A stretch of DNA of 64,000 bases, from the NCBI GenBank assembly GCA_026417735.1, contig JAOACR010000014.1:70829-134828 (forward strand), written 5' to 3'. How positions within the stretch are numbered: position 1 is the first letter of the stretch; each line of letters starts with the position of its first letter. Of this stretch, positions 1 through 49,936 are shown one piece after another. Both the position numbers and the translations under genes were made by a program. The DNA is from Kiritimatiellia bacterium. Its GTDB lineage: Bacteria; Verrucomicrobiota; Kiritimatiellia; PWTM01. The notes below the pieces were generated by a model. The model saw only the letters and a program-made list of their open reading frames with translations, made no database searches and was not told the DNA's origin.

Positions 1-1
1 G

Positions 2-2632: not shown

Positions 2633-2637
2633 CCGCG

Positions 2638-4080: not shown

Positions 4081-4094
4081 ACCTGTTCGCGGCG

Positions 4095-5629: not shown

Positions 5630-6618
5630 GACGGGAACGGATTCGCGAGACTTCAATGGAGGTCACCGTCGGCGCGTTCCTGTTCATGGTGCTGCTCGCG
5701 CTGGCGGTCTTTACGATCATTCTCAGCCGCCAGAGCCTGTTCGAGCGCACCGTCTACTACGAGGTCACGTTCCGCACGGTGCTGGGTGTGCGCGAGGGGG
5801 ACAACGTCTACCTCCGCGGCGTGATCATCGGCAAGGTGGACGACGTGATCGTGGAGCGCCAGGGGGTGCGCGTGCGACTGGCGGTGAACCGCCCTCTCGA
5901 CCTTCGCGAAAATTACCGCATCGAAATCCTTCCCTCCTCGCTGCTGGGCGGCCGCTACCTCGAAATCGAGGAGGGCGACGAGGACCGGCCCGCGATCCCG
6001 CCCGGCACGCCGCTGGTGGGCACCACGCCGAAAGACCTGCTCGACGAAGCGACCCGCGTGGTCGCTTCGATCCGGTCCACGCTGGAGGGCGGCGTGCTCG
6101 ACAATGCGCGCACGATCGTTTCGAACGTGAACGCGATCGTTGCGCGGGTCGAGCGCGGCGAGGGTACGCTCGGGCGGCTCGTTCGCGACGAGACGGTGTA
6201 CAACGACGCTCGCGCGATCGTCGCCAACGTCCGCGAGATCAGCGAGCGGCTGAACCGCGGCGAAGGTTCACTCGGCCGGCTGCTATCGGACGACGGGTCG
6301 ATCTACCGGGACATCGAACAAACCGCCGCGAATCTCCGGCGCGCCTCCGACGATCTCGCGCAGGGCCGCGGACTGCTCGGCAAGCTGATCTCAAGCGATG
6401 ATGCCGTTTACGACGACCTGCGTGCCACGGTCGCGTCGGTCCGGGAGGTGGCGGAGGGGCTGCGGCGGGGTGAGGGCACGCTGGGCCGGCTGCTGAAAGA
6501 AACGGAGGTCTACGAAGACCTGAAACAGGCACTTCGTGAGCTGCGCGCGACCATTGACGACTTCCGCGAAACCGCACCGATCACCACTTTTTCGAGTATT
6601 TTCCTCGGAGCGTTCTGA
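5626..6618 (+). CDS. mlaD: MCE-domain substrate-binding protein (MlaD family)
   Basis: N-terminal TM helix followed by an MCE domain (YYEVTFRTVLGVREGDNVYLRGVIIGKVDDV), then repeated helical segments with GEG(T/S)LGRL motifs. ATG overlaps the mlaF stop (ATGA). Confidence 0.85.
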   Translation: MRRERIRETSMEVTVGAFLFMVLLALAVFTIILSRQSLFERTVYYEVTFRTVLGVREGDNVYLRGVIIGKVDDVIVERQGVRVRLAVNRPLDLRENYRIEILPSSLLGGRYLEIEEGDEDRPAIPPGTPLVGTTPKDLLDEATRVVASIRSTLEGGVLDNARTIVSNVNAIVARVERGEGTLGRLVRDETVYNDARAIVANVREISERLNRGEGSLGRLLSDDGSIYRDIEQTAANLRRASDDLAQGRGLLGKLISSDDAVYDDLRATVASVREVAEGLRRGEGTLGRLLKETEVYEDLKQALRELRATIDDFRETAPITTFSSIFLGAF

Positions 6619-6653
6619 CGTGTGGCTCGGCCGCGAAACCGAAAAAACCTGAC

Positions 6654-8975
6654 ATGCTGACGACAGTGCTGGCGACGCTGCTGTGGATGACCGGCCTGGC
6701 GGAGCTGGTTGCCGCCGCGAGCCTATTCCGGCGCACCCGCCGCCCCGGCATCCGGCCGTTGGCCGTGTTGCTGGCCGCGCTCAGCGTGTACACGGTTGCG
6801 TACGGCTTTGAGATTCTGCGCCCGTCGATCCCCTGGATGCTCGGCTGGCTCCGGGTCGAATATCTGGGGGTACCGTTCATCGGATGGGCATGGTGGTGGC
6901 TCGCCTGGGAAGTCTCCTCCGGGCGCAGTGGCGCGCCCCGGTGGCGTGGCTGGCTCGCGGTGGTGCCGGCGTGCACCGCGGCGGTTGCGCTATTGGGCGG
7001 TGGGAGTCAGTGGATCCATGCCCCCCCACATGAGGTCCGACTTTCCCCGATACCGATCTTTCAGTTCGAGCCCGGTCCGCTCTACAGGGCGATTTGGGCC
7101 TACAACTGGACGCTCGCCGCGCTCGGCACATCGCGGCTGCTGACGCGAGCCGCCATTTATGGCGGTGTCTATCGGCGCCAGCTCCGCGTCTGGTTGGCCG
7201 CGTTTGCGGTGCCCGCGCTCGCCAATCTCGCCTATGCGGCCGGCCTGCAACCGTCGGGCGCGTTCGACATCAACCCGTTCGCCTTCGCCATCGGTGGGGC
7301 GATTGTCGCCCCCGTGGTTCTCCGTAGATCGCTGCTGGATGTGATCCCGATTGCGCGGGCCCGCGCGTTGGACGCGCTCAGCGAGGGTGTCATCGTGATG
7401 GACGCCGACGGTGTGGTGCTCGATGTGAATCCCGCCGCGGCTCGAATGATCGGTGCCGCCCGGATTGGGCGCTCCTGCGAGCTCGCGTTCGAGATGTCGG
7501 CGGAGTTCGGACGCGCAATCTCCGCTGCAGAGGGGAGTGGCCCCAAGATTCTCCATGACGCCGGGCCCTCCCGGCGAGTGATCGAGTGGCGGCAACAACC
7601 GATCGGCGATCCCGCCTCGCCGGAGGGCCGCGTGGTCTGGCTGCGGGACATTACGGAGGAGTACCGAATGCAGGCCGAGCTCCGCGCCCGGGACCGGTTG
7701 CTCGCCGCGCTCGCCCGATCGGCCCGGCTGCTGCTGGGGCCGGCCGGCCTGCCGGAACTGCGCGGCTACATCCACGAGCTCGGCCAATCCTCCGGGGTGG
7801 AGCGTCTGCACCTGATCCTCGGAACGTTGCCGGACGGCACCACGCTGAGCGCACCGGTGGAGGTCGCGCGGTGGGATGCCGCGGAGCCGACGGCGGTCTC
7901 GCCGACGCCACCGCGCTGCCCCGCCGAGAACGCTGCCGATGTGCTCCGCGAGTGGGTGGCCGACCTGCGAGGGGCACAGAGCGTGGCGGGCATGCGGGAG
8001 ACGTTTGCGCCTCCCGCGCGCGCGCTCCTGGAAACCCTGGGCTTGTCGGCAGCGGTCGCCGCACCGATTCTCTGGGGTCGCGATGCCGGCGGTCTGCTGA
8101 TGCTCGGCCTCACGCGCGAGCACCGCGCGCCCACCGCCGCGGAAATCGAGTTTGTGCACGGCGCCGCGCTGCATCTCGCGCTCGCGCTGCGGCGCGACCG
8201 GATGGAGGCCGCGGCGCACGAGGCGCGCCAGACCGAATCCGTCGGCCGGCTGGCGGCCGGTCTCGCGCGCGATTTTAATAATCTCAACCAGGTCGTGCTC
8301 GGCTACACGGAGACGCTGCGCGACGCGTTCTGCGAGGGGGATTCGCGCCGTGCCGACCTCGCAGAGATTGAAGGTGCGGCCCGGCGTGCCGTGCAGATCA
8401 CCCGTCAGCTGCTGGCCGTCGGCGAATCGCTGAACCTCTCCATGGTACCGATGGAGGTGCACGCGCTGCTGCGCCATCTGGCCCCGATGATCGAACGCAT
8501 GCTCGGTCCCTCAATCGTCATGGAGCTGCGACTGGACGCGCCCGACGACCACGTCATCGCCGACGCATCGCTCATCGAGTACGCGTTCCTCGGTCTGGTC
8601 GCGAACGCGCGGGACGCAATGCCGCTGGGGGGACAGCTTCTCATCCGTACCCGCAACATCGAAATTGCCACGGGAGACACTGCGATTGGCGAGCTTGCCG
8701 CCGGCCGCTACCTGGGTGTGGACGTTAGCGACAACGGCATCGGCATGAACGAGACCACGCGCAGCCATCTGTTCGAGCCGTTCTTTTCGAGGAACCCCGG
8801 GGGGCGGAGCATCGGCCTGAACCTCGCGGCAATTCGCGGCACGCTCAAGCAGCATGGAGGGGATGTTCGGGTCGAATCGGTTGAGGGCCGAGGTTCCACC
8901 TTCACCGTGCTGCTGCCGGTTCGCGCGCCTCCTTCCCCCTCGGCTGCGGCGCCGGCCACTGCGCAGGCCGTTTGA
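6654..8975 (+). CDS. Sensor histidine kinase with a Trp-rich multipass membrane N-domain, PAS and GAF segments, and HisKA + HATPase
   Basis: N-terminal ~230 aa hydrophobic; the central region has PAS-like and GAF-like sequence. DHp motif HEARQTESVGRLAAGLARDFNNLNQVV. ATP lid (DNGIGM, GRSIGLNL, GGDVRVESVEGRGSTF). Confidence 0.85.
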   Translation: MLTTVLATLLWMTGLAELVAAASLFRRTRRPGIRPLAVLLAALSVYTVAYGFEILRPSIPWMLGWLRVEYLGVPFIGWAWWWLAWEVSSGRSGAPRWRGWLAVVPACTAAVALLGGGSQWIHAPPHEVRLSPIPIFQFEPGPLYRAIWAYNWTLAALGTSRLLTRAAIYGGVYRRQLRVWLAAFAVPALANLAYAAGLQPSGAFDINPFAFAIGGAIVAPVVLRRSLLDVIPIARARALDALSEGVIVMDADGVVLDVNPAAARMIGAARIGRSCELAFEMSAEFGRAISAAEGSGPKILHDAGPSRRVIEWRQQPIGDPASPEGRVVWLRDITEEYRMQAELRARDRLLAALARSARLLLGPAGLPELRGYIHELGQSSGVERLHLILGTLPDGTTLSAPVEVARWDAAEPTAVSPTPPRCPAENAADVLREWVADLRGAQSVAGMRETFAPPARALLETLGLSAAVAAPILWGRDAGGLLMLGLTREHRAPTAAEIEFVHGAALHLALALRRDRMEAAAHEARQTESVGRLAAGLARDFNNLNQVVLGYTETLRDAFCEGDSRRADLAEIEGAARRAVQITRQLLAVGESLNLSMVPMEVHALLRHLAPMIERMLGPSIVMELRLDAPDDHVIADASLIEYAFLGLVANARDAMPLGGQLLIRTRNIEIATGDTAIGELAAGRYLGVDVSDNGIGMNETTRSHLFEPFFSRNPGGRSIGLNLAAIRGTLKQHGGDVRVESVEGRGSTFTVLLPVRAPPSPSAAAPATAQAV

Positions 8976-9019
8976 GTTTCTGCAGGTCCACGCCCATACT
9001 GGGGGGTTGAGATACGGCG

Positions 9020-10021
9020 ATGAAACCAGCACTGGGCGTGGATTTTGGTGGCACCGCGGTGAAAATCGGCCTGGTCAACGCGCAGGGGCGCGTGCTCGGC
9101 GAGGACGGCTTCGCCACCGCCGGCGTCCGCGGAGTCGAGCGATGGCTGGACGAGGTCGCTGCCGCGGCAGAACGGCTGGGGGTTCCCGCCGGCCGGTGGT
9201 CGCGGGAGCTCTCCGGCATCGGCGTCGGCGTGCCCGGGTTTGTAGATTTCGAACGCGGATTCATTCACAACCTGACGAACGTACCCGGCTGGACCGCAGT
9301 ACACCTCGCGCGGCTGATGCGGGAGCGGTTTGGTGTACCGGTGGTGGTGGACAACGACTGCAACGCAATGGCGTTCGGGGAGTGTCAGTTCGGCGCGGGC
9401 CGCCGCTATCGTCACGCGGTGTTTCTCACGCTCGGCACCGGTGTCGGCGGCGGGATTGTGCTGGATGGCCGCGTCTGGCGGGGCGCATATTCGATGGCCG
9501 GCGAGATCGGCCACGTGCCGATCGATCTGCACGGCGTGCGCACGCCGACCGGCCGCGGAGGACTGGAAGAATATGTCGGCAACCGGCAGATCGTCCGTCG
9601 TGCCCGCCGCCTGCTCCGTCACCGGCGGTCAATTCTGCCGGATCTGGTGGGTGGCAACCTGCGCGAGCTGACCCCGCGGCACCTCGCCGACGCCGCTGCG
9701 AAGGGCGACGCGGTTGCGCTGGAGGTGTTCGACTACATGGCCGACTGTCTGGCCACCGCGCTGGCCGGCATCACCTACCTGCTGCAGCCCGAGGCGTTCA
9801 TCGTCGGTGGCGGCGTCGCAGCCGCCGGCGACGTGCTGTTTGGGCCGTTGCGCCGTCATCTGACAGAACGGCTGAGCCCGTTCTTCGCCAAATACATTCG
9901 CGTGGAACCAGCGGCGCTGGGCAACCGCGGTGGGATGATTGGCGCCGCCGCGCTGGTGTTGAAGTCGAACGAGTCTTCCCCATGCATCGGCCCGCGGTCC
10001 AGACGCGCTCGGCGGTCGTAA
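9020..10021 (+). CDS. ROK-family sugar kinase (glucokinase-like; lacks the Cys zinc motif)
   Basis: MKPALGVDFGGTAVKIGLV, ROK core GTGVGGGIVLDGRVWRGAYSMAGEIGHV. No CxCGxxGC motif. Confidence 0.85.
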   Translation: MKPALGVDFGGTAVKIGLVNAQGRVLGEDGFATAGVRGVERWLDEVAAAAERLGVPAGRWSRELSGIGVGVPGFVDFERGFIHNLTNVPGWTAVHLARLMRERFGVPVVVDNDCNAMAFGECQFGAGRRYRHAVFLTLGTGVGGGIVLDGRVWRGAYSMAGEIGHVPIDLHGVRTPTGRGGLEEYVGNRQIVRRARRLLRHRRSILPDLVGGNLRELTPRHLADAAAKGDAVALEVFDYMADCLATALAGITYLLQPEAFIVGGGVAAAGDVLFGPLRRHLTERLSPFFAKYIRVEPAALGNRGGMIGAAALVLKSNESSPCIGPRSRRARRS

Positions 10022-34157: not shown

Positions 34158-34237
34158 GGTGGTGAGCGCGGCAGCCGCTGGAGACCGTGCGATGGTGGCA
34201 ATGTCCAGTTCACCGGCTCGGTGGAGGGTGATAGGTC

Positions 34238-34266
34238 TTGACAGCGTACCTGTGCGGCGTTATGCT
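34238..34266 (+). promoter_or_regulatory. Sigma70 promoter for pyruvate carboxylase (-35 TTGACA, 17-nt spacer, -10 TATGCT)
   Basis: ggtcTTGACAgcgtacctgtgcggcgtTATGCTgga; leaves a ~90-nt leader before the ATG at 34363. Divergent from dnaG. Confidence 0.45.
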
Positions 34267-34362
34267 GGAGGACTCAAGAAGGTCCGCAGGACGTGAGCAG
34301 GAGCCTGAACAACTGCATGCAGCCCTCCATTCTCGGAGAGGGTCGGTGCTGATCCGCCCGAT

Positions 34363-38903: not shown

Positions 38904-41363
38904 GTGGCTCATCTCGTTGCTGGGCGGCCGATCCCGCCCCTTCGCGGAGGGACGGTAGGGGCCTTTTGTGCGACGATCGTCGCGATGGGACTGACCGGCT
39001 GCGCGACCGTACCCACGAATCCCTACTTTTCCTCCGTGCGCTCCGCCGCAAATGTGTATGTGGCGCCGGTGCGCGCCGACGTTGTGAAGATCGCGGTGTT
39101 GCCGTTCAAAGCGCCCACGGAGCTGATCGGCGCATCCGTCGCGGACATGGTGGTGACGGAAATGCTGAAGCTCGGCCGCTACACGCTGGTGGAGCGCAGC
39201 CAAATGGCCGGCGTGCTGAGCGAAACCGAGCTGGCGATGGCGGGCCTCTCCGAACGCCGAGCGATGGAAGTGGGCCGGATGCTGGGCGCTGATGGCGTCG
39301 TGATCGGCACGGTGGATGAATACTCCACCCAGGCGCGGGGCGGCCGCACCCACGCGGTGGTGGGTCTCTCGATCCGGCTGATCCACTCGCAGACCGGCCA
39401 GATTCTCTGGAGCGCGGACCTCGCGAAAATGGCGGAGGACCCGAACGTGCCGCTGGCCGCGCACGGTCGAGCGGTGGTGCACGAGCTGATCGCAGGCTTG
39501 TATCAGCGTTTGGGCGCGCAGCGCTCCACGCCGGCGCCGGGCACCGCGATGGGCGCGCCCGTGCCGGCTTCCGCCCCCGCGGCACCTGCCCCGCCGCCAC
39601 CACCTCCTCCGCCACCGAGCGACCTGAAGGCTTCGGACCTCGGCCTTCGCGAGGTCACGCTGACCTGGAGCGTGCCGAGAGAAGCGATTTCGGCCTACCG
39701 CATCGAGCGCGCCGAGTCGCTGCAGGGGCCTTTCGTAAAGATTGCGGAAGTCTCACCCCTACGGGGCATGTACACCGATCGGGATGGCCTGAAAGATTCG
39801 TCGACCTACTACTACCGCATCATCGCGGTGGCTGGCCCCGGCCGACTGAGCGAGCCATCCAGGCCCGTCGAAAGCATGACTGCACCACCCCCGGATCCGC
39901 CGCCGACGGTGAGCGCCGTCGCCACGGGATCTCGCGCGGTGACGCTCACGTGGACCGCACCCCGCGCGGAGGGCATTGTGCGCTACCGGATAGAGCGCGC
40001 GTTGGCGGCGGACCTCCAGCGGCAGTGGGTCCCGCGGGGCGAGACCACCGGCACGACATTGGTCGACGGCGGCCGGCCCGGCACGGACCTACTGGATAGC
40101 ACGGAGTACCTCTACCGCGTCGCTTCGATCAACCGGGTCGGCGCAGTGGGGCCGCCCTCCGAGCCGGTCCGAGTCATGACGCTGCCACCGCCGGCACCCA
40201 TTGCGGATCTGCGCGCCGCCTCGGACGAAGTGCGGTGCGTTCCGCTGCGCTGGACGGCCAGCCCGGAAGGGGATGTGACGGGGTACGAAATTGAACGCCG
40301 CGCCCCCGGAGAGGACGCGTTCAGGCTGCTGGTGACCGTTCAGGGCCGACTGAGCACCAACCACCTCGACGGCCTGCGCGATCCCGGCAATCTGAAGGAT
40401 GAGGCCTGCTACATCTACCGCATCCGGCCGTTCAATGCGGTGGGCTCTCGCGGCGCGTGGTCGCCGCCGGTGGAGGCCGTCACTCGGGCACCGCCGCCCG
40501 CTCCCCAAAGCGTCAGCGCACGCTCCGGCCTCCCGCGCGCGGTTGAAGTTGCGTGGGCCGCCTCGCCGGATTTAAAGGTCACCGGCTATCGAATCGAACG
40601 TGGGGAGGGTGAAACTGGCCCCTTCGTGCTCGTCGGCCAGGTGAGCGGCCTGACAACAACGCAGTTTCTGGACCGGGCCGGCGCGTCGAGGTCGTCGCCG
40701 GTCGGCCATTTGAAGGACGGTACGCGGTACCGTTACCGCGTCAGCGCGTTCAACACCGCGAATGCCGCGTCGCCGTGGTCCGAGACGGTGTTGGCGACCA
40801 CGAAACCCGCGCCCTCCGTGCCGACCGGCCTCACCGCGACGACTAACCGCCCCAAGTCCGTTGCCCTCGCCTGGGCTCCCAACCCCGAGCCGGACATCGT
40901 CCGCTACGTGGTGGAATCCCGTGCGGCGGACAGTTCGCGCTGGCGCGAGGTGATCAGCACCAGCGGCACCGTCGCAGTGCACGCGGGGTTGAACGACGGC
41001 GAAGTTCGGTATTACCGCCTCCGCGCGGTGGATCGCGACACCCTGGAGAGCGCCGCCTCCGCAGAGGCCCGCGGCGCGGCGCGGCCGCTGCCGCCGGCGC
41101 CGGAGAGCCTGGCGGCGGAATGGACAGCGGAGGGCGCACGACTGAGCTGGGAGGGGCGGCCGGGCATGAAGGAATACCGCCTCTATCGCAAAGGATTTCT
41201 GTCGTCGGAACGGCTACTGGCGGTTGCCGGGCCGCCGGCATTGCTGCCGGCGGCGGTGGTCGGAAAAGGTTTGACGGTGGTGGTCACGGCGGTGGACGAG
41301 GAAGACCTGGAGAGCCGGCCATCGGCGGCGATTAAGATCCGCCCGCCGGCAGCGCCGCGTTGA
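38904..41363 (+). CDS. Lipoprotein with an N-terminal CsgG/LpoB-like domain, Pro-rich linker and six fibronectin type III repeats
   Basis: The ORF is open from 38751. An in-frame GTG at 38904 gives a 32-aa signal ending in lipobox L-T-G-C; the ATG at 38985 leaves only 5 aa before the Cys. Domain motif VKIAVLPF...GRYTLVERSQ...LGADGVVIGTV. PPPPPPPPP linker. Six ~95-aa FN3 units with tyrosine corners (YYYRIIAV, YLYRVASI, YIYRIRPF, YRYRVSAF, RYYRLRAV). Confidence 0.75.
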   Translation: MAHLVAGRPIPPLRGGTVGAFCATIVAMGLTGCATVPTNPYFSSVRSAANVYVAPVRADVVKIAVLPFKAPTELIGASVADMVVTEMLKLGRYTLVERSQMAGVLSETELAMAGLSERRAMEVGRMLGADGVVIGTVDEYSTQARGGRTHAVVGLSIRLIHSQTGQILWSADLAKMAEDPNVPLAAHGRAVVHELIAGLYQRLGAQRSTPAPGTAMGAPVPASAPAAPAPPPPPPPPPSDLKASDLGLREVTLTWSVPREAISAYRIERAESLQGPFVKIAEVSPLRGMYTDRDGLKDSSTYYYRIIAVAGPGRLSEPSRPVESMTAPPPDPPPTVSAVATGSRAVTLTWTAPRAEGIVRYRIERALAADLQRQWVPRGETTGTTLVDGGRPGTDLLDSTEYLYRVASINRVGAVGPPSEPVRVMTLPPPAPIADLRAASDEVRCVPLRWTASPEGDVTGYEIERRAPGEDAFRLLVTVQGRLSTNHLDGLRDPGNLKDEACYIYRIRPFNAVGSRGAWSPPVEAVTRAPPPAPQSVSARSGLPRAVEVAWAASPDLKVTGYRIERGEGETGPFVLVGQVSGLTTTQFLDRAGASRSSPVGHLKDGTRYRYRVSAFNTANAASPWSETVLATTKPAPSVPTGLTATTNRPKSVALAWAPNPEPDIVRYVVESRAADSSRWREVISTSGTVAVHAGLNDGEVRYYRLRAVDRDTLESAASAEARGAARPLPPAPESLAAEWTAEGARLSWEGRPGMKEYRLYRKGFLSSERLLAVAGPPALLPAAVVGKGLTVVVTAVDEEDLESRPSAAIKIRPPAAPR
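39621..41363 (+). repeat. Six tandem FN3-like coding repeats (protein level) within the lipoprotein gene
   Basis: Each unit begins around (L/V)T(W/L)xW.. and ends ..Y.YR..A.N..G..G..S.PV; the DNA copies are diverged. Confidence 0.6.
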
Positions 41364-41512
41364 GACCTCCGGATTCGGCGGCCCGCGCGGCACGAGGAGC
41401 CGTGCGATGAAGGATCGCCGCAGCATGCGGCATCGGTGCGCGAGGCCGTGCCCCGAGAAGCGGGTGGTGTTGAACGTGTTCGGCGGCAAGCCGTACAGGG
41501 AGGATCAGCATC

Positions 41513-44500
41513 ATGAACGCGGTTGAGTTCCAGGGGGAGTCTGGTCGGCCCGGGACCGGGCACACCGTGTTCGCTACAACGGTTTTCTGCCTGACGATCC
41601 TCTCGGCAACGGTCGGGTCCGCCGCCGGTCCTCCCGGCTCGGACCGCGAGGAGAACGCGGGGGGGTATCGGGCGCCCGTGGGCACGGCCGGACATCGCGC
41701 GGGCGAGAGTGGCGGGGCGGCGGCCGCCCCATCCGCGGCGCGCGATCCCGAGCGCGAAGCCGCTTGGCAACGGGCGCGCGCGGAGGCAAACCGGCGGGTG
41801 CGGGAGTTTGAATCGGCGCTGCAGTCCGGCGATCCCGCGCGGATCCGGCGCAGCGCCCTTGACTTGCAATCGGACCCGCTGGCGATCCACCACATCAACC
41901 GCAACCGCCCGGATCTCGTGGAGGCGAACAATCAAGTGGTGCGCGAGATCCGCACCGAGGCGACCCGGCAGATGCGCGAGGCGGCGGCGCGAGAATGGAA
42001 CCGCGCAAACCCCGACAAGCCGCCCGTCACCGCCGACGATGTCGAAATCTACCAACCCCGCAACTGGCGCAGCCCGGACGCGCCGGCGACCAGCCCCCAG
42101 GACTGGGACGTCACCGTCCGGGTGCGCGGACAGGATCTTCCGCCAAGCCGCGCACGACGCATCGTCGAGGAATCGTTTTACCACGCCGCGGGCGGCGAGC
42201 AGACCTTTGGCAAGGGAGCAACCCCGGAAAGTGTCGCACGACGCCAGCGCGTCGAGACCACCAGCGGCCGAAGCCCGGAAGCCTACAATGAACCGCAGAG
42301 AATTCTCGGTACACCGGACGCACCGCCGCGGCCCGGCGAACCACTCCGTGATCCGGAACAACTGACCCGCGCCATCGAGCACAAGAGCAACGCGGCGCGA
42401 AACGAGTCGGATGCCGCCCGAGGCCGGGGCGACCCCGTTCAGGCAGCGCACCACGAATTCGACCAGATGTACCAGGCCGCCAAACAGTACGAGCGCATCA
42501 CCAGACCCCGCGTTGAAGCGGCGGGCGGGCGGGTGGATCCGCGGGTGGAGGAGGGCATGCGGATTCTGGGACAGGTCGGTCCGGACGGCATTTCGCCGGA
42601 AGAGGCACGGGCCCGGCTCGCGCAAATGGGCGAAACGCCAGAGTCGATCATCCGCAAGGCGTCGGGTCAGGCGGAGGCGGCCCAGGTGCTCGGCAGGGGA
42701 CGCGGCACTCAGGCGGACACGCCGGAGGGGGCCGCACGCGGCGCCACAGATGCGCCCGAAGGCCGGGCTCGCGGCCCCTCGGATGCGCCGGAGGCCCCAC
42801 CTCGAGGCCCCTCCGATACCCCCGACCGCGTGCCGGGCAGAGTCGGCAAAGCGCTGGAAACCGTTGGAAAGGGCATGCAGGCAGTGGACATCCTCGCAGG
42901 TGCGGACGACGCCAAAAAGGCAATCCAGGACGGGGACATGGGGAAACTGCGGGACAGTGTGGTCAACACCGCGGATGGGCTGGCGGGCGGTCCCCTCGCC
43001 ACCGGCCGAATGCTCGAGGAGCGCCTGGGCAAGAACCGCACCGAGAAAAATGAAGCACAAGAACAGGCGCGCCAGGCGGCCGAAGCGGAGCTGGAGCAGC
43101 GTATGCGCGTGGAACTTCGGCAAAGCGGGCTCTCAAAGGCCGAAGTGGAGGCGATCATGGAGGCGCGCGCGCGCGGTGATGACCGGCCGCTGCGCGACGC
43201 CTACGAGAGGGCGGGCCGAACGCCACCGAAAGGTGAGTCGCCGGATCCTGGCTGGCGCGACTCCCTGAACAACTACGGTTCGGAAGTGGTCGCGAACACG
43301 AAGGAGGTCGCGCAGGGAATCGCGGACCGCGCGGAGAAGGCGAAAAACTTCGTCACTCAGACCGGCCGGGACCTCGCGGAGATCGGCGCGGGGCTGACCG
43401 AGAAAGGGGTCGCCCGCGAGCTGATCGAGAAACAGAAAGACAACCTGACGAAGGACAACCTGAAGGCCGGCGTGGAACACCTTGCGGAAAAGGGGAAGGA
43501 ACTGATCGGGGTGAAAGAGACCGATCGCGAACGCGAGGGCCGCGCTGCACAGGATCTCGCCGAGAAGCTGATCGAAAAGGGTGTCGATCCGGAGACCGCC
43601 CGGCGGGTGGCCGGCGACTACATCACCCATGCGGGCGGCAAGGGGACACGGGGACAGCTGCGCGACGTGCTCGAGAGCGCGCGTTCCTCTTCCAAGGGTG
43701 GCATCTCCGCTGCCGGGACGGCGACCGAAGGAGGAAGTCGTGAAAAGGACGCGCGCACGACCTCCGCCCGGAGCGGCCCGCAGAAAGAACGCACCGAGTC
43801 AGCCCGCGAACGTCCCCCGGATCGTGAGGTCGCACCGTCCCCCTCGCCGCCGACGACCGCGGGCCGCGAACGCGGCCCTTCGAAGGAAGACAGGGAGGCA
43901 CCGCGCAACGACGCCGGCGAGCGGGTGGATGCCGGACAGTACCGCGACGGTGACACGATCGTCGTGCGCGACGGCACTGAATACGTGAAGCAGGGCGACC
44001 GGTGGGAGAAAACAGGTCGCAACTATGGTTCCTACACCGCCGAACGCGGTGCGCGCGGCGGTCTGGCTGGCGCGGAGCCGGCGGCGGGCGCGACGGCCAG
44101 CCGCGGCGATGCGAGCTCACGGGCCGGCGGTCTCGGGGGCCTGATCGACGGCCGGAGCGAGAAAACTTCCGCCCAGACGCAGGGAGCGCTCGGTCTGATG
44201 GGCGGTCAACAGAATCTCGCGCACGCCTCCACCCGCGGTGACGCTGCTGCGCGGGATGCGCGGACGCTGGTGGATGCCGCCGGCCGGGAGGCGCATACGT
44301 CGAGCCAGAAGTCGGCCGCCGACGTCGCCAGCGCCAATCGGGAGGGCGGTTGGGGCAAAGCCGTTGCCGACGGAGTCCAGCAGGCGGTCGAAAAAGGTCT
44401 GACGGCAGCGGGCCAGTCGTTGGGCAAGGCCGCCGCGGACGCCGCCGCCAACTCGATATTCAAGGACGGCCAGAGCGCCGGTGGTGCTCCGGCCACCGGC

Positions 44501-45073
44501 GCCTCCGCCGGAAGCGCGCCGGTGACCGCATCGGCTGGCGGCGCGTCGGCAAGAGGCGCCACGCGGACCGTCTCATCTGCCAGTGGCGGCAGCAGCCGCG
44601 GAGCGCGGTCGCACGGCGGAGGTGGTCGCGGAGAGCACCGCGACAGCAGCCGTCGTGATGATTCCGCCTCCGGCGCGCATGATGGCACGACATTGTCCGG
44701 CGAGGGCACGGGCGGCGTCACCGTGACCTGTCCCGGTTGCGGAAAACCAGTGAAGGCGGCGCCGGGCGAAAGCGTCCAGTGCCCCTACTGCGTGACGATG
44801 AACTGCCCGCGATGTGGATACTCCAAGAACTATCCGCGCGGGCAGGAGCCCGAGAGCTGCCCGATGTGCTATACGACCACCTGCGGGATCTGTGGCCGCA
44901 CGGGCTGGGCGCGGCGCGATCGCCCCGCCCCGCAGTGTCCGCACTGCATCCGTATCCGTTGCTCGCGCTGCGGTAGCCTCCTCTATCAGGGCGATCGCGC
45001 CTCCGCACCCGCATCGTTGCCCTGCGAGACCTGCACCGCACGCGCGAAGGCCGAGGCGGGAAAGGGGAACTAA
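41513..45073 (+). CDS. Giant (1186 aa) low-complexity protein with N-terminal hydrophobic anchor/signal and four C-terminal tandem zinc ribbons; function unknown
   Basis: Strong SD (AGGGAGGA) 8 nt before the ATG. Hydrophobic segment HTVFATTVFCLTILSATVGSAAG. ~1000 aa rich in A/G/R/E/D with short repeats (DAPEGRARGPSDAPEAPPRGPSDTPDR; LAEKGKELI/LAEKLIEKG). The C-terminal 116 aa carry 16 Cys as CxxC-x13-[CxxC-x4-CxxC]-x14-[CxxC-x4-CxxC]-x14-[CxxC-x4-CxxC]-x17-CxxC. Confidence 0.8.
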   Translation: MNAVEFQGESGRPGTGHTVFATTVFCLTILSATVGSAAGPPGSDREENAGGYRAPVGTAGHRAGESGGAAAAPSAARDPEREAAWQRARAEANRRVREFESALQSGDPARIRRSALDLQSDPLAIHHINRNRPDLVEANNQVVREIRTEATRQMREAAAREWNRANPDKPPVTADDVEIYQPRNWRSPDAPATSPQDWDVTVRVRGQDLPPSRARRIVEESFYHAAGGEQTFGKGATPESVARRQRVETTSGRSPEAYNEPQRILGTPDAPPRPGEPLRDPEQLTRAIEHKSNAARNESDAARGRGDPVQAAHHEFDQMYQAAKQYERITRPRVEAAGGRVDPRVEEGMRILGQVGPDGISPEEARARLAQMGETPESIIRKASGQAEAAQVLGRGRGTQADTPEGAARGATDAPEGRARGPSDAPEAPPRGPSDTPDRVPGRVGKALETVGKGMQAVDILAGADDAKKAIQDGDMGKLRDSVVNTADGLAGGPLATGRMLEERLGKNRTEKNEAQEQARQAAEAELEQRMRVELRQSGLSKAEVEAIMEARARGDDRPLRDAYERAGRTPPKGESPDPGWRDSLNNYGSEVVANTKEVAQGIADRAEKAKNFVTQTGRDLAEIGAGLTEKGVARELIEKQKDNLTKDNLKAGVEHLAEKGKELIGVKETDREREGRAAQDLAEKLIEKGVDPETARRVAGDYITHAGGKGTRGQLRDVLESARSSSKGGISAAGTATEGGSREKDARTTSARSGPQKERTESARERPPDREVAPSPSPPTTAGRERGPSKEDREAPRNDAGERVDAGQYRDGDTIVVRDGTEYVKQGDRWEKTGRNYGSYTAERGARGGLAGAEPAAGATASRGDASSRAGGLGGLIDGRSEKTSAQTQGALGLMGGQQNLAHASTRGDAAARDARTLVDAAGREAHTSSQKSAADVASANREGGWGKAVADGVQQAVEKGLTAAGQSLGKAAADAAANSIFKDGQSAGGAPATGASAGSAPVTASAGGASARGATRTVSSASGGSSRGARSHGGGGRGEHRDSSRRDDSASGAHDGTTLSGEGTGGVTVTCPGCGKPVKAAPGESVQCPYCVTMNCPRCGYSKNYPRGQEPESCPMCYTTTCGICGRTGWARRDRPAPQCPHCIRIRCSRCGSLLYQGDRASAPASLPCETCTARAKAEAGKGN
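44723..45070 (+). other. Cysteine-rich module: four consecutive zinc-ribbon-like units (8 CxxC pairs)
   Basis: CPGCGKPV..CPYCVTMNCPRCGY..CPMCYTTTCGICGRT..CPHCIRIRCSRCGS..CETC. Regular spacing suggests four Zn(Cys)4 ribbons. Confidence 0.6.
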
Positions 45074-45076
45074 ACG

Positions 45077-45457
45077 GTGGCGCCGGGCCGATCAGTTGTT
45101 GCCCAGCATTGGGCGGCGCTGCTCGTCGGCGTGGCCGTTGCCGCGACGGCTGCGGAAGACCGCGAGGCGGTCGCGAACGTGTTCCGCTCGGGCGAAGTGG
45201 CCGGCACCGCCTCAAATGACAGCCGCCGAACCGAACACATTGAGCACGCGATCGAGATGCTCGAAAAGAACGTTCGCGCGCTGGAAGTTCGGTTGGGGCG
45301 CGCAACACAGGCCCCCTCGCCATCCCACAACATCGAACGGCGGCTGCAGGAACTGGAACGTAGAATGGAGAGCATCGAACGGGAAGTGAAACGTCTGGAC
45401 GAACGCCTGCGCCGGCTCGAGGGGCGTCGACCGTCCGGAAGCGCGGGAGAGCGATGA
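45077..45457 (+). CDS. Small membrane-anchored coiled-coil protein
   Basis: GTG start 3 nt after the giant-protein stop. Hydrophobic N-terminus (WAALLVGVAVAATAA), then a heptad-like region (IEHAIEMLEKNVRALEVRLG...IERRLQELERRMESIEREVKRLDERLRRLEGR). Confidence 0.6.
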   Translation: MAPGRSVVAQHWAALLVGVAVAATAAEDREAVANVFRSGEVAGTASNDSRRTEHIEHAIEMLEKNVRALEVRLGRATQAPSPSHNIERRLQELERRMESIEREVKRLDERLRRLEGRRPSGSAGER

Positions 45458-46314
45458 GCACGAGACCAACGTCGGTGTGGTGGGCCTGGAGGGTAGCCGC
45501 AGTGATCGGCGCCGTGGCGGCGGGGGGGGACGGCACGCCCCGCGTGATGGTGCTGGTGGACGAGAAGAGTCTCGGGACGATCCCCACCTCGGAGGTCGAA
45601 GCGATCGGCGTACGAATGCTGAGCGAACGACGAGTTGAGTCGGTGGACCAGGACATGGTTCGCGCGAATCTTCAGCGCGTGCAGCAGGCGTTGCGCGGCG
45701 CCGGCGACGACCGTGGCGCCGCGGCGCTCGGGCGGGAATTCGGCGCCGACGTAATCATCGTGGGCGAGGCGGTTGCGAAGCCGTCGGCGCGCCGACTCGC
45801 GGACACGAATCTTCGCACGTATCAGGCCGTGGTCACGCTGCGCGCGGTGCGTACGGACAACTCGGTGAACCTGGCCTCCGCATCGGAGGACGTTTCCGTA
45901 GTGGGGCTGGACGACGTTGCAGGCAGCGCCAAGGCGCTGCGGGAGGCCGGCCGGCAGGCGTTCGAAGCGTTGATCCCGCAGATGCTGGAACAATGGAACG
46001 CCTCCGGCGCGCCCCCGCGGAGGTCACCCAACGTGGCGGCGGGACGACCGCTCGATGTGACGGTCGGCGGCGTGGACCAGGTGTGGAAGCTGAAGGCGAT
46101 CCGCGATGTATTGCGCGGTCGTCCGCAGCACATCGAAGAGGTGACGCAGCGAAGTTACGCGCAGGGTCTTGCGGTGTTCAGAATCTCATGCCGCGTGCCG
46201 GTGGAGGAGCTGGCCGAAGCGCTGGTGCTGCAGCCGCCGGAGGGCCTGAAGCTGCAGGTGGTGGAAATGACACCCGCCGCGCTGACGTTGCGCGCGGTCG
46301 AGGCGAATCCGTGA
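45454..46314 (+). CDS. Secreted CsgG/LpoB/FlgT-N-like domain protein (paralogous to the N-domain of the 38904 lipoprotein)
   Basis: Signal-like N-terminus (SVWWAWRVAAVIGAVAAGG). RVMVLVDEKSLG...VRMLSERRVESVD...GADVIIVGEAV parallels IAVLPF...LGRYTLVERS...GADGVVIGTV in the lipoprotein. Overlaps the previous stop (ATGA). Confidence 0.65.
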   Translation: MSTRPTSVWWAWRVAAVIGAVAAGGDGTPRVMVLVDEKSLGTIPTSEVEAIGVRMLSERRVESVDQDMVRANLQRVQQALRGAGDDRGAAALGREFGADVIIVGEAVAKPSARRLADTNLRTYQAVVTLRAVRTDNSVNLASASEDVSVVGLDDVAGSAKALREAGRQAFEALIPQMLEQWNASGAPPRRSPNVAAGRPLDVTVGGVDQVWKLKAIRDVLRGRPQHIEEVTQRSYAQGLAVFRISCRVPVEELAEALVLQPPEGLKLQVVEMTPAALTLRAVEANP

Positions 46315-46321
46315 GGTCCTC

Positions 46322-47326
46322 ATGATCACAAGTGGACGCCAGATGAGATGGCTTGCGGCAGGGCTGCTCGCCGTTGGGTCCATAGCGGCAGACTCTGACC
46401 GGGCACTGCTGCTTCGGGCGCTGTTCCGCTACCGCATCGCCGCTCAGGCGGCCGCAGATGCGCGGCAGCTGGCCGCCTCGGCACCGTCGGACGTCGCGCG
46501 CGAGGTCGCCACGGGAGCAGAGGCATGGAGTGGCGCGGTGTACGACTCGATCCGAAGCGAGCTGGAAAACGCGCTCGGGGACAGAGCGAAGTCAGAATTT
46601 GGTGGGTTCGCCACCGCATATATCGCCGCCGAGGAGCGCGGCGACGCGACATGGCTGGCCACACTCGCACAGCAGCTGCGGGTCTCCCCGATTCCGCGCG
46701 ACTACGCGGCCCTGCGGCGCGCGATGGTGGAGGAGTGCCTTTCCGCCGAGGTCGCGGAGGCGGCCAGCTTCGTCGGCGAGGTGCAGACCTGGCTCGAGTT
46801 GCGGCAGCGCTCCGAAGATGTGCCGCCGCTACGGTCATGGCTGTCCCGAACCGAACCCGTCGCCGTTCAGCCCGCCAGCGACGCGCCGCCCCGCCTGGTC
46901 CGGCAAACCGCGCGATCCGACAATCCGCTGCGCGAGGCCGAGGCGCCGGCCGGCGCATTCGTCGCGAGTGAGGAACCGGCTGCGGCCGGCTTGGAGGCGC
47001 TGAGTGGCGCCCGCGCCGCACGTCGCGAGAAGGCGCTGGAGGTCGCGCAGGCGGGCATGCAGCAGGTCGCAGAGGAGCGGCGTGCGGCGGAGGAAGAGCT
47101 TGCCGCGAAGAAAACCGCCGCTGCGCAGGCGGAAGCTGAGGCACTCAAGAAACAGGCGGAGAAGCTCGCGGCGTCCGAGCAAGAGGCGTTGGAACAGCGC
47201 AAAAACAGCTGGTCCGGACGCCTGAAGCAGGTCGTCTCGAGCGCGATCGGCGCGGCGGGCGGGGCTTTCCTGGGCGGCATCGGCACTCGGGCGGGCGAAG
47301 CCGCGGCCGAAGCGGTCTTTCGCTGA
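46322..47326 (+). CDS. Secreted alpha-helical protein with C-terminal coiled coil and glycine-zipper segment
   Basis: Signal-like MRWLAAGLLAVGSIAA (alternative start 46343). C-terminal A/E/K-rich coiled coil (AEERRAAEEELAAKKTAAAQAEAEALKKQAEKLAASEQEALEQRK), then GxxxG zipper SAIGAAGGAFLGGIGTRAGEAAAEAV. Confidence 0.6.
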   Translation: MITSGRQMRWLAAGLLAVGSIAADSDRALLLRALFRYRIAAQAAADARQLAASAPSDVAREVATGAEAWSGAVYDSIRSELENALGDRAKSEFGGFATAYIAAEERGDATWLATLAQQLRVSPIPRDYAALRRAMVEECLSAEVAEAASFVGEVQTWLELRQRSEDVPPLRSWLSRTEPVAVQPASDAPPRLVRQTARSDNPLREAEAPAGAFVASEEPAAAGLEALSGARAARREKALEVAQAGMQQVAEERRAAEEELAAKKTAAAQAEAEALKKQAEKLAASEQEALEQRKNSWSGRLKQVVSSAIGAAGGAFLGGIGTRAGEAAAEAVFR

Positions 47327-47572
47327 GCGGTGCCGCCGTCACCGCCCCGTGGGGAGTGGGGGAATGTCGTCGCGTTCGATTCCACCGGGGACACCGCCCG
47401 CGTTGGTCGGCTGGTCCGGTCGGGACCGGAGGTCAGGGCACATTCGATGCTCCAGGGCTGCGCTGGAGCCGAACCGCGAGGGGACCGCGAGTCAGGCGGT
47501 GCATTGCGCGGGCGCGGGCTCTCCGCTGCGGAGCGCCGCGCAAGTCGCCCGGTGGCCGTTCTCACCGCCGCA

Positions 47573-48598
47573 TCAGCGGCGCGGTGCCAGGCGCTCCAGT
47601 TCCTCGCGGGCGCGTTGCATTACCTCCGCCAGTTCCACTTCGTCGCCGCCGCGCTGCCGGCTGAGCTCCGCCGCCTCCATGAAGGCGAGAATTTCGATCG
47701 TTTCCTCCTCCGGCACCGGCGGAACGCCGCTTCTGAAAAACTTCAGAACCTCGCGGAGCATCGGCACGTAGCCGGCCGATTCGCCAATCGGCTGCTCACC
47801 CCGCTCCCCTCTTGCGCGTCCGCCATATCCCCACTGTTCTTTCGACTGCCGGAACGTCCCTTTGCGACCGTCGGTCCACGTCCCGACGACTTCGACGCGG
47901 CCATCCTCGAGCGTTCGGCGCCGGACCGAGCGGCAGCCCGGCCCCATCACGGTGAAGAGCGACTCGACACCGTGGATGCCGTACCAGAAGAGCTCCGGGT
48001 GGGTCGGCTCAATCACCACGGGCGATTCGGTTTCGGCCTCGAGCACGCGCCCGACCGCACCCTTCCGCACGGCCTGGGTGTTGGTCCCATACCGCAACGA
48101 GGAACAACTGAACACCGGCACGCCCTTCTCCCGAGCAAGCTGGAAGATCGCCAGCCCGTCGCGCAACGAGGCGGCCATCGGCTTGTCAATGAACAGCCGC
48201 TTGCCGGCGGCAATCACCGGCCGCGCCTGCTCCAGATGCACGCGCCCGTCCACGCTGGTCAGGATCACCGCGTCGACCTGCCGGCATAGCTCCTCGATGG
48301 TCGGAACCAGCACGACGCCCCATCGGTTGGTGAGTTCTTCAGTGAACTTTTCGATCCGGTCGCGGCTGGCGGAGATGTCGGGGCTGCCGCCCTTGAAGGC
48401 CGCGACGATCCGCGCACCGGGCAGATGATTGGACGCGGTCGGGTCGTTCAGAATCTTCGCAAACGCGACAACGTGGGAAGTGTCGAGCCCGATCAGCCCC
48501 AGCCGCAGCGGCGCTTCCTCCGCCGCCTCCGCGCGAAGGGCAAAACTCGCCAACCCCATCGCCCCCAACGTGCTCTGCAGAATTCGTCTGGCTTTCAT
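47573..48598 (-). CDS. Gfo/Idh/MocA-family NAD(P)-dependent oxidoreductase with N-terminal signal peptide
   Basis: Signal (MKARRILQSTLGAMGLASFALRAEA). Rossmann N-terminus (LRLGLIGLDTSHVVAFA). GFO_IDH_MocA C-domain features. Confidence 0.85.
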   Translation of the reverse strand: MKARRILQSTLGAMGLASFALRAEAAEEAPLRLGLIGLDTSHVVAFAKILNDPTASNHLPGARIVAAFKGGSPDISASRDRIEKFTEELTNRWGVVLVPTIEELCRQVDAVILTSVDGRVHLEQARPVIAAGKRLFIDKPMAASLRDGLAIFQLAREKGVPVFSCSSLRYGTNTQAVRKGAVGRVLEAETESPVVIEPTHPELFWYGIHGVESLFTVMGPGCRSVRRRTLEDGRVEVVGTWTDGRKGTFRQSKEQWGYGGRARGERGEQPIGESAGYVPMLREVLKFFRSGVPPVPEEETIEILAFMEAAELSRQRGGDEVELAEVMQRAREELERLAPRR

Positions 48599-48628
48599 GT
48601 GTCACTCGATCGCGTTATCATTGCAGTT

Positions 48629-49936
48629 ATGAGGACTGCAATCAATCGCCGCAGGTTTCTTCGTACGGGGCTTTCGTTCGGCACCACGGTGTGCACGGTG
48701 GGCCCCGCGTTGCTCTCCCGCGCGGCCCCCTCGAGGCTGCTCCGGGTGGCGATCATGGGCGTAAACGGCAGGGGGATGGACCACATCAAGGGCTGGGCCG
48801 GTCAGCCGGATGTGGAGATCGCCTGGGTTTGCGACGTGGACCGGCGCGCGCTCGAGCGGGCGGCGGCGCAGGTGGAAAAAACAACCGGCCGCGCGCCCAA
48901 AACGAGCGACGACGTCCGGCGGGTGCTCGAAGATCGAGAGCTTGATGTGCTCTCGATTGCGGCGCCGAACCACTGGCATGCACCGGCGACCATTCTTGCG
49001 TGTGCGGCTGGCAAGCACGTGTATGTGGAAAAGCCGGGCAGCCATAATCCGTGGGAGGCGGAGATGATGGTGAAGGCGGCCCGGCACCATCGGCGGCTCG
49101 TGCAGATGGGCAACCAACGGCGGAGCATGCGCAACATCATCGCCGCGATTGAGGCGGTGAAGTCTGGCGCGGTGGGCCGCGTGTTGACCGCCCGGTGTTA
49201 TTACACGCGGTTTCGTCCGCCGATCGGGCGCGGCAAGGAAGCCCCCGTGCCCGAGTGGCTGAACTACGACCTCTGGCAGGGCCCTGCGCCGGAACGGCCG
49301 TACCGCGACAACGTGATTCATTACAACTGGCACTGGTTCTGGCACTGGGGGAACGGCGAGCTGGGCAACAACGGCGTGCACACGCTGGACCTCGCCCGCT
49401 GGGCGCTCGGTGTGGACCGCCCGCTCAAGGTCACCTACTGCGGCGGTCGCTATCTCGCCGACGACGATCAGGAAACCCCCGACACCGGGGTGGCGGCGTT
49501 CGACTTCGGGACTGCGCTGGTCACCTGGGAACAAAGCAGCAGCCATCCGCGAAAGGGAGAAACGCTTCCTCTCGTCGCCTTCTACGGCGAGCAGGGCCGC
49601 CTGGTGCTGAGCGACGCCGGTCACAGGATCTACGACAGTGACGGCAAGGAGGTGGCACAGACCGAAAGTGGCGTCGCCGGCGACGTCGTGCGCGGACCCG
49701 GCGGCGAACTCGAACATTTTGGCAATCTCTGCGCGGCGATTCGCGACGGCGCGAAGTTGAACTCGGAGATTGAAGAGGGGCAAAAAAGCACGATGCTCTG
49801 CCACTACGGCAACATGGCGATTCGGACGGGTTCAATGATTCACGTGGACCCGGTGACCGGCCGGGTGCGGGACAACCCGGCCGCGATGGCGCTCTGGAAA
49901 CGCGACTACCGGCCGGGGTGGGAACCCAAGTTGTGA
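48629..49936 (+). CDS. Gfo/Idh/MocA-family oxidoreductase with twin-arginine (Tat) signal, GH109-like architecture
   Basis: The ATG at 48629 gives MRTAINRRRFLRTGLSFGTTVCTVGPALLSRAA (RRxFLR Tat motif). Rossmann (LRVAIMGVNGRGMDHIKGW), EKP motif (VYVEKPGSHN). The ORF is open from 48425, but upstream codons overlap the divergent gene. Confidence 0.85.
   Translation: MRTAINRRRFLRTGLSFGTTVCTVGPALLSRAAPSRLLRVAIMGVNGRGMDHIKGWAGQPDVEIAWVCDVDRRALERAAAQVEKTTGRAPKTSDDVRRVLEDRELDVLSIAAPNHWHAPATILACAAGKHVYVEKPGSHNPWEAEMMVKAARHHRRLVQMGNQRRSMRNIIAAIEAVKSGAVGRVLTARCYYTRFRPPIGRGKEAPVPEWLNYDLWQGPAPERPYRDNVIHYNWHWFWHWGNGELGNNGVHTLDLARWALGVDRPLKVTYCGGRYLADDDQETPDTGVAAFDFGTALVTWEQSSSHPRKGETLPLVAFYGEQGRLVLSDAGHRIYDSDGKEVAQTESGVAGDVVRGPGGELEHFGNLCAAIRDGAKLNSEIEEGQKSTMLCHYGNMAIRTGSMIHVDPVTGRVRDNPAAMALWKRDYRPGWEPKL

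Follow-up and report, generated by a model that had tools for sequence, protein, structure and literature searches.

A conserved cassette of predicted envelope proteins in Kiritimatiellia with CsgG/PelC-type folds and a variable slot for large exported proteins

The five-gene cassette and its products

We analyzed a 64,000-nt stretch of DNA (hereafter, the window; contig JAOACR010000014.1, positions 70,829 to 134,828) from a metagenome-assembled genome (MAG) of Kiritimatiellia, focusing on five genes, termed here g1 to g5, that form a compact cassette at positions 38904-47326 of its plus strand. Kiritimatiellia are abundant, mostly uncultured polysaccharide degraders of guts, digesters, sediments, and lakes, and their cell envelope is, to our knowledge, almost undescribed. 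The original prediction for this locus, made from the sequence, described an envelope module whose function is unknown and to which no characterized system corresponds, and our data support and extend that view. Three of the products are identical to database proteins of a Kiritimatiellia MAG (g2, MCX7819066; g4, MCX7819068; g5, MCX7819069; locus tags N2652_07670-07685), in which all cassette products are annotated as "hypothetical protein."

Open reading frame (ORF) listing together with GC content by codon position supported each of the five genes (GC content at third codon positions [GC3] 0.71-0.82, in a window whose G+C content is 66-72%): g1 (38904-41363, 819 aa), g2 (41513-45073, 1186 aa), g3 (45077-45457, 126 aa), g4 (45454-46314, 286 aa), and g5 (46322-47326, 334 aa), all on the plus strand. 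This co-directional layout is the one originally described, with gaps of 149, 3, -4, and 7 nt in order from g1 to g5; the 150 nt previously given for the first gap is a coordinate difference. Translational coupling of g2 to g5 had also been proposed; g3 and g4, which share ATGA, are the sole overlapping pair in the cassette, and coupling of g2 to g5 is suggested by their spacing only. Purine-rich runs resembling Shine-Dalgarno sequences lie upstream of g2, g3, g4, and g5; within the 149-nt spacer between g1 and g2 (41364-41512, plus strand), GGGAGGA is located 8 nt ahead of the g2 ATG. A scan for consensus promoters and terminators that included this spacer found none, and the signals were no better than those in shuffled sequence.

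Each of the five proteins has one strongly hydrophobic segment, which is N-terminal, and no second one, and homologs of the cassette proteins carry clear Sec signal peptides. We therefore retain the earlier assignment of all five as exported products, as predicted from these segments. In g1, the signal is that of a lipoprotein with the lipobox L-T-G-C33, which marks the protein as a predicted outer-membrane lipoprotein. It is followed by an alpha/beta domain of the CsgG/PelC/LpoB type (~aa 55-215), a Pro/Ala-rich linker, and a chain of FN3 domains. Pfam matches were obtained for CsgG (7e-13, aa 74-180, covering only model positions 35-155 of 210), LpoB (1.8e-6), and fn3 (2.2e-36, 5 stretches), and a sixth FN3 domain is probably present besides the five detected by Pfam. 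The top PDB sequence matches of g1 were PelC (E = 0.0076) and LpoB, not CsgG.

The most conserved gene of the cassette is g4, whose product consists of a signal peptide, a domain of the CsgG/PelC/TolB-N fold (aa 29-183), and a small beta-alpha-beta-beta-alpha-beta-beta domain (aa 198-283) for which Pfam returned nothing usable at E values up to 10. Recognition of the CsgG-type fold required a structure model, because sequence-level tests gave nothing or were weak: a profile search of g4 against the PDB found nothing, and hhalign of g4 against the g1 domain yielded E = 0.009 at a probability of 4%. Comparison of the model with known structures scored CsgG highest (11.8), followed by PelC (11.1, 11.0, and 10.5), TolB (11.0), FlgT in the LPHT ring (10.1), GNA1162 (9.4), LptE (9.1), TraT (9.1), LpoB (8.8), and PqiC (8.1). 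Thus, g1 by profile and g4 by structure model fall within the LptE/PelC/CsgG/PqiC/TolB-N group of alpha/beta folds, in line with the CsgG/LpoB-type fold that had been assigned to two products. Typical members of the LptE/PelC/CsgG/PqiC group are lipoproteins of the outer membrane that serve as plugs or rings. With respect to CsgG itself, 131 of its 206 residues aligned with g4, and three sheet strands of the g4 model lie in conserved charged sequence (K109, P110, N119, and R121), hold invariant charged residues, and form no lipid-facing hairpins. Neither g1 nor g4 resembles the CsgG channel, as the periplasmic core alone was matched.

The large protein g2, which had been characterized as low-complexity, turned out to be an exported multi-domain protein with disordered linkers; conservation covers aa 70-400 and aa 440-710, and confident folding was predicted for part of this region. 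Behind its sole hydrophobic segment (aa 19-37) lies a conserved head domain of ~330 aa, g2N (41720-42712, plus strand; aa 70-400), which is helical with a small sheet and contains the motif QDWDVT; judging from the structure model, it would be a well-folded domain without a known fold counterpart. A 33-nt tandem repeat of 2.7 copies (42737-42825, plus strand) encodes an 11-aa Pro-rich linker between g2N and the next region. In homologs, this linker differs in repeat unit and copy number, as in the long (GDxPKxT)n array of one relative (P0130). The conserved helical middle region that follows, g2M (42830-43642, plus strand; aa 440-710), has partly low model confidence, and Gly/Ser/Arg-rich linkers connect it to a module of ~110 aa, termed C1 (44135-44482, plus strand; aa 875-990), in which helices lead into a glycine zipper ending in SIF. 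The Cys-rich tail (44717-45070, plus strand; aa 1069-1186) holds 16 of the 17 cysteines of g2 in four CxxC...CPxC pairs. These correspond in number to the four zinc ribbons of the original prediction, and the label applies at the motif level only, because no Pfam zinc-ribbon model reaches its threshold and the best scores fall far below the cutoffs. No family in Pfam, NCBIfam, PADLOC, or PHROG matched g2, a profile search of g2N against the PDB found nothing significant, and Pfam at E values up to 10 gave nothing usable for g2M, C1, the Cys tail, or the N-domain of g5.

Relatives of g2N occur well beyond the cassette. A BLAST alignment with a homolog labeled Omnitrophota (P0144) showed 40% identity over aa 95-704 of g2, and a relative with three PASTA domains (P0151) was 35% identical at aa 71-391. 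Moreover, a profile search of 1.84 billion representatives revealed 392 clusters, with g2N placed N- or C-terminally within large proteins. In these proteins, 40 of which were scanned with Pfam, PKD, FecR, CarboxypepD_reg, PASTA, RDD, and N-terminal zinc-ribbon domains occur beside g2N, and PT-TG once. Given these varied partners, g2N is a mobile domain that mostly accompanies extracytoplasmic or membrane-anchoring domains. Across 40 distant relatives (alignment A6), only two Asp residues (the DxD of QDWDVT) and two Lys residues are invariant, and they could form a catalytic or ligand-binding site.

The C1 module links g2 to the last gene of the cassette. The g5 protein has a signal peptide, a conserved helical N-domain (~aa 25-185), a linker, and a C-terminal C1 module (46991-47323, plus strand; aa 224-334) that ends in a glycine zipper. 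Indeed, a C1 profile built from g2-type proteins also matched the C-terminus of g5, and hhalign, run with the g5 family profile against that of C1, gave a probability of 97% (E = 1.2e-10, 107 columns). The profile matched 64 of 70 g5 homologs and 104 ORFs across the loci described below. By these profile matches, C1 is common to g2 and the g5 C-terminus, and, given this homology, g5 is the minimal, constant C1 protein. C1 has no Pfam or PDB match, and a profile search of g5 against the PDB found nothing significant. The remaining product, g3 (126 aa), combines an N-terminal signal or anchor segment with a coiled coil of ~70 residues.

Conservation across genomes and polymorphism of the large-protein slot

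Hundreds of g4 relatives were found, those with a label coming from MAGs called Kiritimatiellae, Lentisphaerae, or Verrucomicrobia, and the 119 other homologs listed have 54-81% identity; identity of g5 across genomes is 38-66%. Scanning one genome per GTDB species yielded 62 loci, all from MAGs, in which the cassette genes were counted by profile searches over the locus ORFs; an antisense "family 5" that arose from crude gene calling was discarded as spurious. In all 58 loci with enough downstream sequence, g5 directly follows g4. Another CsgG-like gene is present in 35/35 loci, and a CsgG-FN3 lipoprotein like g1 in 22 of 35. Just before g4, a short (~190 aa) CsgG-only gene that the window does not have occurs in 36 of 55 loci, and a g3-like coiled coil in 24 of 55, a lower bound for so short and simple a protein. 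A large C1-bearing protein is encoded upstream in 39 of 46 loci.

Clustering of the neighbors revealed that the cassette families alone recur around g4, with any other family found in at most 9 loci. The flanks vary by locus: the upstream neighbor is SurA-like in one and GMP synthase in a second, and in the window it is pyruvate carboxylase. Because synteny is conserved while the flanks differ, these genes constitute a unit rather than chance neighbors, and we are nearly certain that this unit is genuine and functional; homologs co-occur in many genomes, which was the neighborhood check put forward with the original prediction. So far, the cassette has been found only in uncultured Kiritimatiellia-type MAGs. 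Two contigs with full cassettes (L042 and L051) come from MAGs labeled Desulfobulbus sp., and L054 comes from one labeled Victivallis vadensis; these labels probably reflect a binning or labeling error rather than a wider host range, the alternative being horizontal transfer.

Whereas g4 and g5 are constant, the position of g2 is a variable "cargo" slot that is polymorphic between genomes. No more than about 10 loci have g2N there, and both g2N and g2M are missing from many slot proteins; at least two CxxC motifs occur in the last 220 aa of 39 of 59 slot proteins. Two loci (L022, positions 2-9127, and L036, positions 1-9174) carry four to five tandem C1 paralogs of ~460-520 aa, one exceeding 1000 aa, in which C1 lies in mid-protein, followed by the short CsgG gene, g4, and g5. 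In two others (L005, 4411-9567, and L033, 1299-6443), the slot holds Rhs proteins of ~1715 aa with a Sec signal, DUF6531, 8-9 RHS repeats, a YD shell, and the motif PxxxxDPxGL, after which come a very hydrophobic glycine zipper (a weak Pfam Gly-zipper_Omp match), C1, and a CxxC knuckle. Two MAGs hold two cassettes each (L036 and L064; L058 and L061). The heads, i.e., the regions N-terminal to C1 in the large proteins, are thus exchangeable between genomes, and C1 is the feature that stays constant in these proteins. Neither this polymorphism, nor the sharing of C1 by g2 and g5, nor the short CsgG-like gene before g4 in many relatives was part of the original prediction.

The association of C1 with g4 was also assessed from the g2 side, using relatives of g2N. 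One C1-positive relative (P0147) lies inside a full cassette and another (P0152) directly after a g4 homolog, at the usual g5 position, whereas neither g4 nor g5 nor any CsgG-like gene lies near the C1-negative relatives P0144, P0136, and P0146. All 6 of 6 contexts agree; C1 therefore occurs in company with g4, and what stays invariant in the cassette is a g4 gene together with one for a C1 protein. We consider it quite probable that C1 is coupled to g4.

Some loci depart from the common arrangement. In one (L069, 45-5236), the g4 homolog is followed directly, at the g5 position, by a protein of 1379 aa that contains g2N and C1; two TPR proteins and three unknowns come next, with no g5 or CsgG-FN3 gene on the 12.8-kb contig. 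A protein with g2N and g2M that lacks C1 lies outside any cassette in L067 (9412-12646) and on the P0136 contig (homologs labeled Omnitrophota). It is always preceded, at a gap of 8 nt, by a gene for a 193-aa multi-pass membrane protein without a Pfam family, and the two may be a separate two-gene unit; its neighbors in L067 are AbiEii, IS21, and SLFN-helicase genes. In addition, two small accessory families, neither found in the window, each recur in 7-9 loci: a signal-peptide protein of ~165-190 aa whose gene immediately precedes that of the large C1 protein (L024, L026, L032, L037, L038, and L056) and a lipoprotein of ~126 aa downstream of g5 (L019, L020, L023, L025, L034, L041, and L066).

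Collectively, the cassette represents a well-conserved, lineage-specific gene set of Kiritimatiellia, and its C1 and g2N modules define two new domain families that have no counterpart in Pfam, NCBIfam, or the PDB. A widespread outer-membrane fold that forms rings (LptE/PelC/CsgG/PqiC) is thereby linked to polymorphic giant exported proteins that include Rhs toxins.

In the window, the cassette is flanked by housekeeping genes, namely DnaG (minus strand), pyruvate carboxylase, and BirA upstream and two GFO/IDH oxidoreductases, RmlD, and RmlB downstream. A candidate sixth operon gene that starts 3 nt past g5 (47330-48289, plus strand, 319 aa) was rejected given its atypical codon-position GC. 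It is the shadow of a true gene on the opposite strand (47573-48598, minus strand) that has normal GC3 and a GFO_IDH_MocA match, and the operon therefore stops at 47326, facing a convergent gene. The second GFO/IDH gene lies at 48425-49936. Gene orientation in the window switches at ~34158-34362, from the minus strand at 10.4-34.1 kb to the plus strand beyond, and GC skew changes there from about -0.15 to about 0. A replication origin at this switch was considered and rejected, as no DnaA-box cluster is present. An Rfam scan of the whole 64-kb window (1-64000) found no family at its gathering score.

A possible ring-docking role and competing explanations

We postulate that the cassette works by ring docking in the display or export of large proteins, a tentative reading that we find plausible but somewhat short of probable. 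In this mechanism, g4 and g1, joined in many genomes by the extra short CsgG-like protein, would oligomerize on the periplasmic side of the outer membrane to give a ring or platform. The C1 modules, both that of g5 and those of the large proteins, would bundle and dock in or on this structure. The g3 protein would serve as a periplasmic coiled-coil strut and the FN3 chain of g1 as added reach, so that the cassette would anchor, display, or assist the export of variable heads (g2N here, the Rhs cage in two other genomes). Such docking may be likened to the PqiC ring, which holds PqiB by its C-terminal helical needle and tail, or to PelC funneling onto PelB. For proteins of the LptE/PelC/CsgG/PqiC fold group, ring formation at the outer membrane has precedent: a PqiC-like octamer surrounds its partner's helical C-terminal needle, and a groove of the ring binds the partner's C-terminal peptide, with the tail determining specificity (PMC13631591). 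On this reading, the likely use would be in cell-cell interaction or antagonism, and the Rhs variants suggest antagonism or adhesion. If the docking and export model is true, it would add a new route by which large effectors are displayed or delivered in double-membraned bacteria, and C1 would be a sequence tag from which the cargo repertoire can be predicted from genomes.

Several observations weigh against ring docking. Ring formation by g1 or g4 would be an analogy only, and LpoB and TolB-N have the same fold and yet are monomeric. The g4 protein of the window has no lipobox, which is found in only some homologs, and the cassette encodes no beta-barrel or other outer-membrane channel, so that no export route across this membrane is visible. 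The hydropathy of the C1 zipper is only moderate (1.39), and extracytoplasmic zinc ribbons are unusual. On the side of the variable heads, Rhs proteins fill the slot in only 2 of the 62 loci, and there are no small or immunity-like genes between the tandem C1 genes. Finally, the loci were retrieved through g4, which makes its presence, though not the adjacency of the other genes, a matter of construction, and the independent test of the C1-to-g4 link comprises six contexts only.

A more specific version, which we regard as doubtful though possible, would make the cassette a new Sec-dependent sorting or secretion apparatus of Kiritimatiellia. Here, a PelC/CsgG-fold ring (g1, g4, and in some genomes the short paralog) would recognize C1, possibly together with the Cys-knuckle tail, and would anchor on the surface or export polymorphic giant effectors, including Rhs toxins, with g5 as a constant needle or adaptor subunit. 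If so, the C1 and g2N families would define a new trafficking route for polymorphic toxins or adhesins.

The main rival to ring docking is an envelope-architecture module, that is, a tether or spacer of the outer membrane and wall, or a regulator of wall synthesis, like Lpp, Tol-Pal/CpoB, or LpoB, in which g2 and g5 would be structural periplasmic proteins and not cargo. The LpoB/TolB-N type of the g1 and g4 fold, the Lpp-like periplasmic coiled coil of g3, the six FN3 domains of g1 as a potential spacer, the three PASTA domains of one g2N relative, the high conservation of g4, and the location of the window cassette among housekeeping genes all fit such a role. However, no scanned cassette protein contains the peptidoglycan-binding domains OmpA_C, LysM, SPOR, or PASTA, and no penicillin-binding protein (PBP), Tol, or Pal gene recurs beside the cassette. 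This explanation also leaves the variability of the slot, its Rhs proteins, and its copy number of 1 to 5 unaccounted for, as well as the two MAGs whose two cassettes bear different large proteins. We therefore judge it unlikely; if true, it would show how this lineage joins its outer membrane to the wall.

The exchangeable heads could also suggest a polymorphic-toxin cassette, in which the large C1 proteins are secreted toxins, through either C1 or the head, and g3, g4, and g5 are immunity or maturation factors. Rhs proteins with PxxxxDPxGL and a hydrophobic glycine-zipper C-terminus in the slot of L005 and L033 are consistent with it, as is the PT-TG pre-toxin domain of one g2N relative. Immunity proteins are usually far less conserved than g4 (54-81% identity) and g5 (38-66%), however, and C1 is present in g5 itself. 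In addition, the window g2 has neither RHS repeats nor a known toxin domain, and no small genes are interleaved among the tandem C1 paralogs, which makes this possibility quite improbable.

Curli-like type VIII secretion, with g1 or g4 as a CsgG-type beta-barrel channel secreting g2 and g5, appears very improbable. The Pfam CsgG match of g1 is confined to positions 35-155 of the 210-position model, and its best PDB sequence matches are PelC and LpoB rather than CsgG. Likewise, g4 aligns with 131 of 206 CsgG residues, its model strands are conserved and charged without lipid-facing hairpins, and the CsgA, CsgB, CsgE, and CsgF families match no cassette protein. Chance adjacency of unrelated hypothetical genes is refuted by the synteny (g5 after g4 in 58/58 loci, only cassette families recurring, and varying flanks) and can be dismissed as practically impossible.

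Comparison with known systems

The cassette fits no known system, which agrees with the original prediction: curli, Pel, Tol-Pal, flagellar, defense, and phage families match none of g2, g4, and g5. A search of the literature retrieved no description of such a cassette, no paper connecting Kiritimatiell* to CsgG, to Rhs, or to lipoproteins of the outer membrane, and none connecting proteins like CsgG to polymorphic toxins. Against PADLOC and PHROGs, the cassette had generic FN3 and coiled-coil matches only and none for g2, g4, or g5, so that no anti-phage defense or phage structural family is represented; NCBIfam likewise returned no match for these three proteins.

Several systems share the fold of g1 and g4 but differ from the cassette in their other components. 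In curli secretion, CsgG is a full-length lipoprotein with two transmembrane beta-hairpins (36-strand barrel); in the cassette, only its periplasmic core is matched, and the barrel hairpins are without evidence. No Pfam or NCBIfam match to csgA, csgB, csgE, or csgF was found in g1-g5, and these genes do not recur in the 62 loci. LpoB (TIGR02722/PF13036) is a lipoprotein of the outer membrane that has a long flexible linker and partners with PBP1B, via the UB2H domain. The score of g1 against TIGR02722 was 27.8 bits (cutoff, 110.55), and g4 had no NCBIfam match, scored 14.7 bits against Pfam LpoB (cutoff, 22.3), and lacks a lipobox in the window, which places both outside LpoB membership; no PBP genes recur beside the cassette. 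The cassette is also outside Tol-Pal, for which neither a TolB N-domain joined to a beta-propeller nor tolQRA/pal neighbors were found, and of the FlgT, FlgO, and FlgP-type H/T-ring proteins, whose flagellar gene context is absent.

Closer parallels are offered by ring lipoproteins. The cassette has the PelC-type lipoprotein domain of the Pel exporter, in which PelC forms a dodecameric lipoprotein ring, but a PelB-like TPR/barrel gene does not recur (TPR proteins occur in one variant locus, L069), and PelA and PelD-G are absent. Its resemblance to PqiBC lies in the ring-type fold and, at the level of concept, in a ring that is paired with a partner's C-terminal helix. Unlike the MCE systems with PqiC-like rings (PqiABC and PA3211-PA3214 of P. 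aeruginosa), the cassette has no MCE partner with a C-terminal helical needle and no PqiA-like or ABC component. Moreover, the window g4 differs from PqiC in not being a lipoprotein and in its extra C-terminal domain, and its partners are giant polymorphic proteins.

With regard to the large proteins, Rhs/YD-repeat toxins include the Sec-exported WapA and the Rhs effectors of the type VI secretion system (T6SS) with glycine-zipper pore-forming C-termini, e.g., Tse5. Like the cassette, Rhs toxins join variable domains to a constant module, which is C-terminal in the cassette and not N-terminal. Neither the RHS_repeat nor the YD-shell model matches the window g2, such matches being found only in the slot proteins of L005 and L033, and PAAR, VgrG, or other T6SS families were matched in no scanned cassette protein. 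Sorting domains such as the C-terminal domain (CTD) of the type IX secretion system (T9SS) and PEP-CTERM have no sequence relation to C1, and their known sorting enzymes and translocons are absent from the cassette; in g2, moreover, C1 is not terminal but is followed by a further linker and the Cys-rich tail. By analogy, the cassette may nevertheless resemble them in its organization, as each would combine a shared C-terminal module on unrelated large exported proteins with a dedicated gene set.

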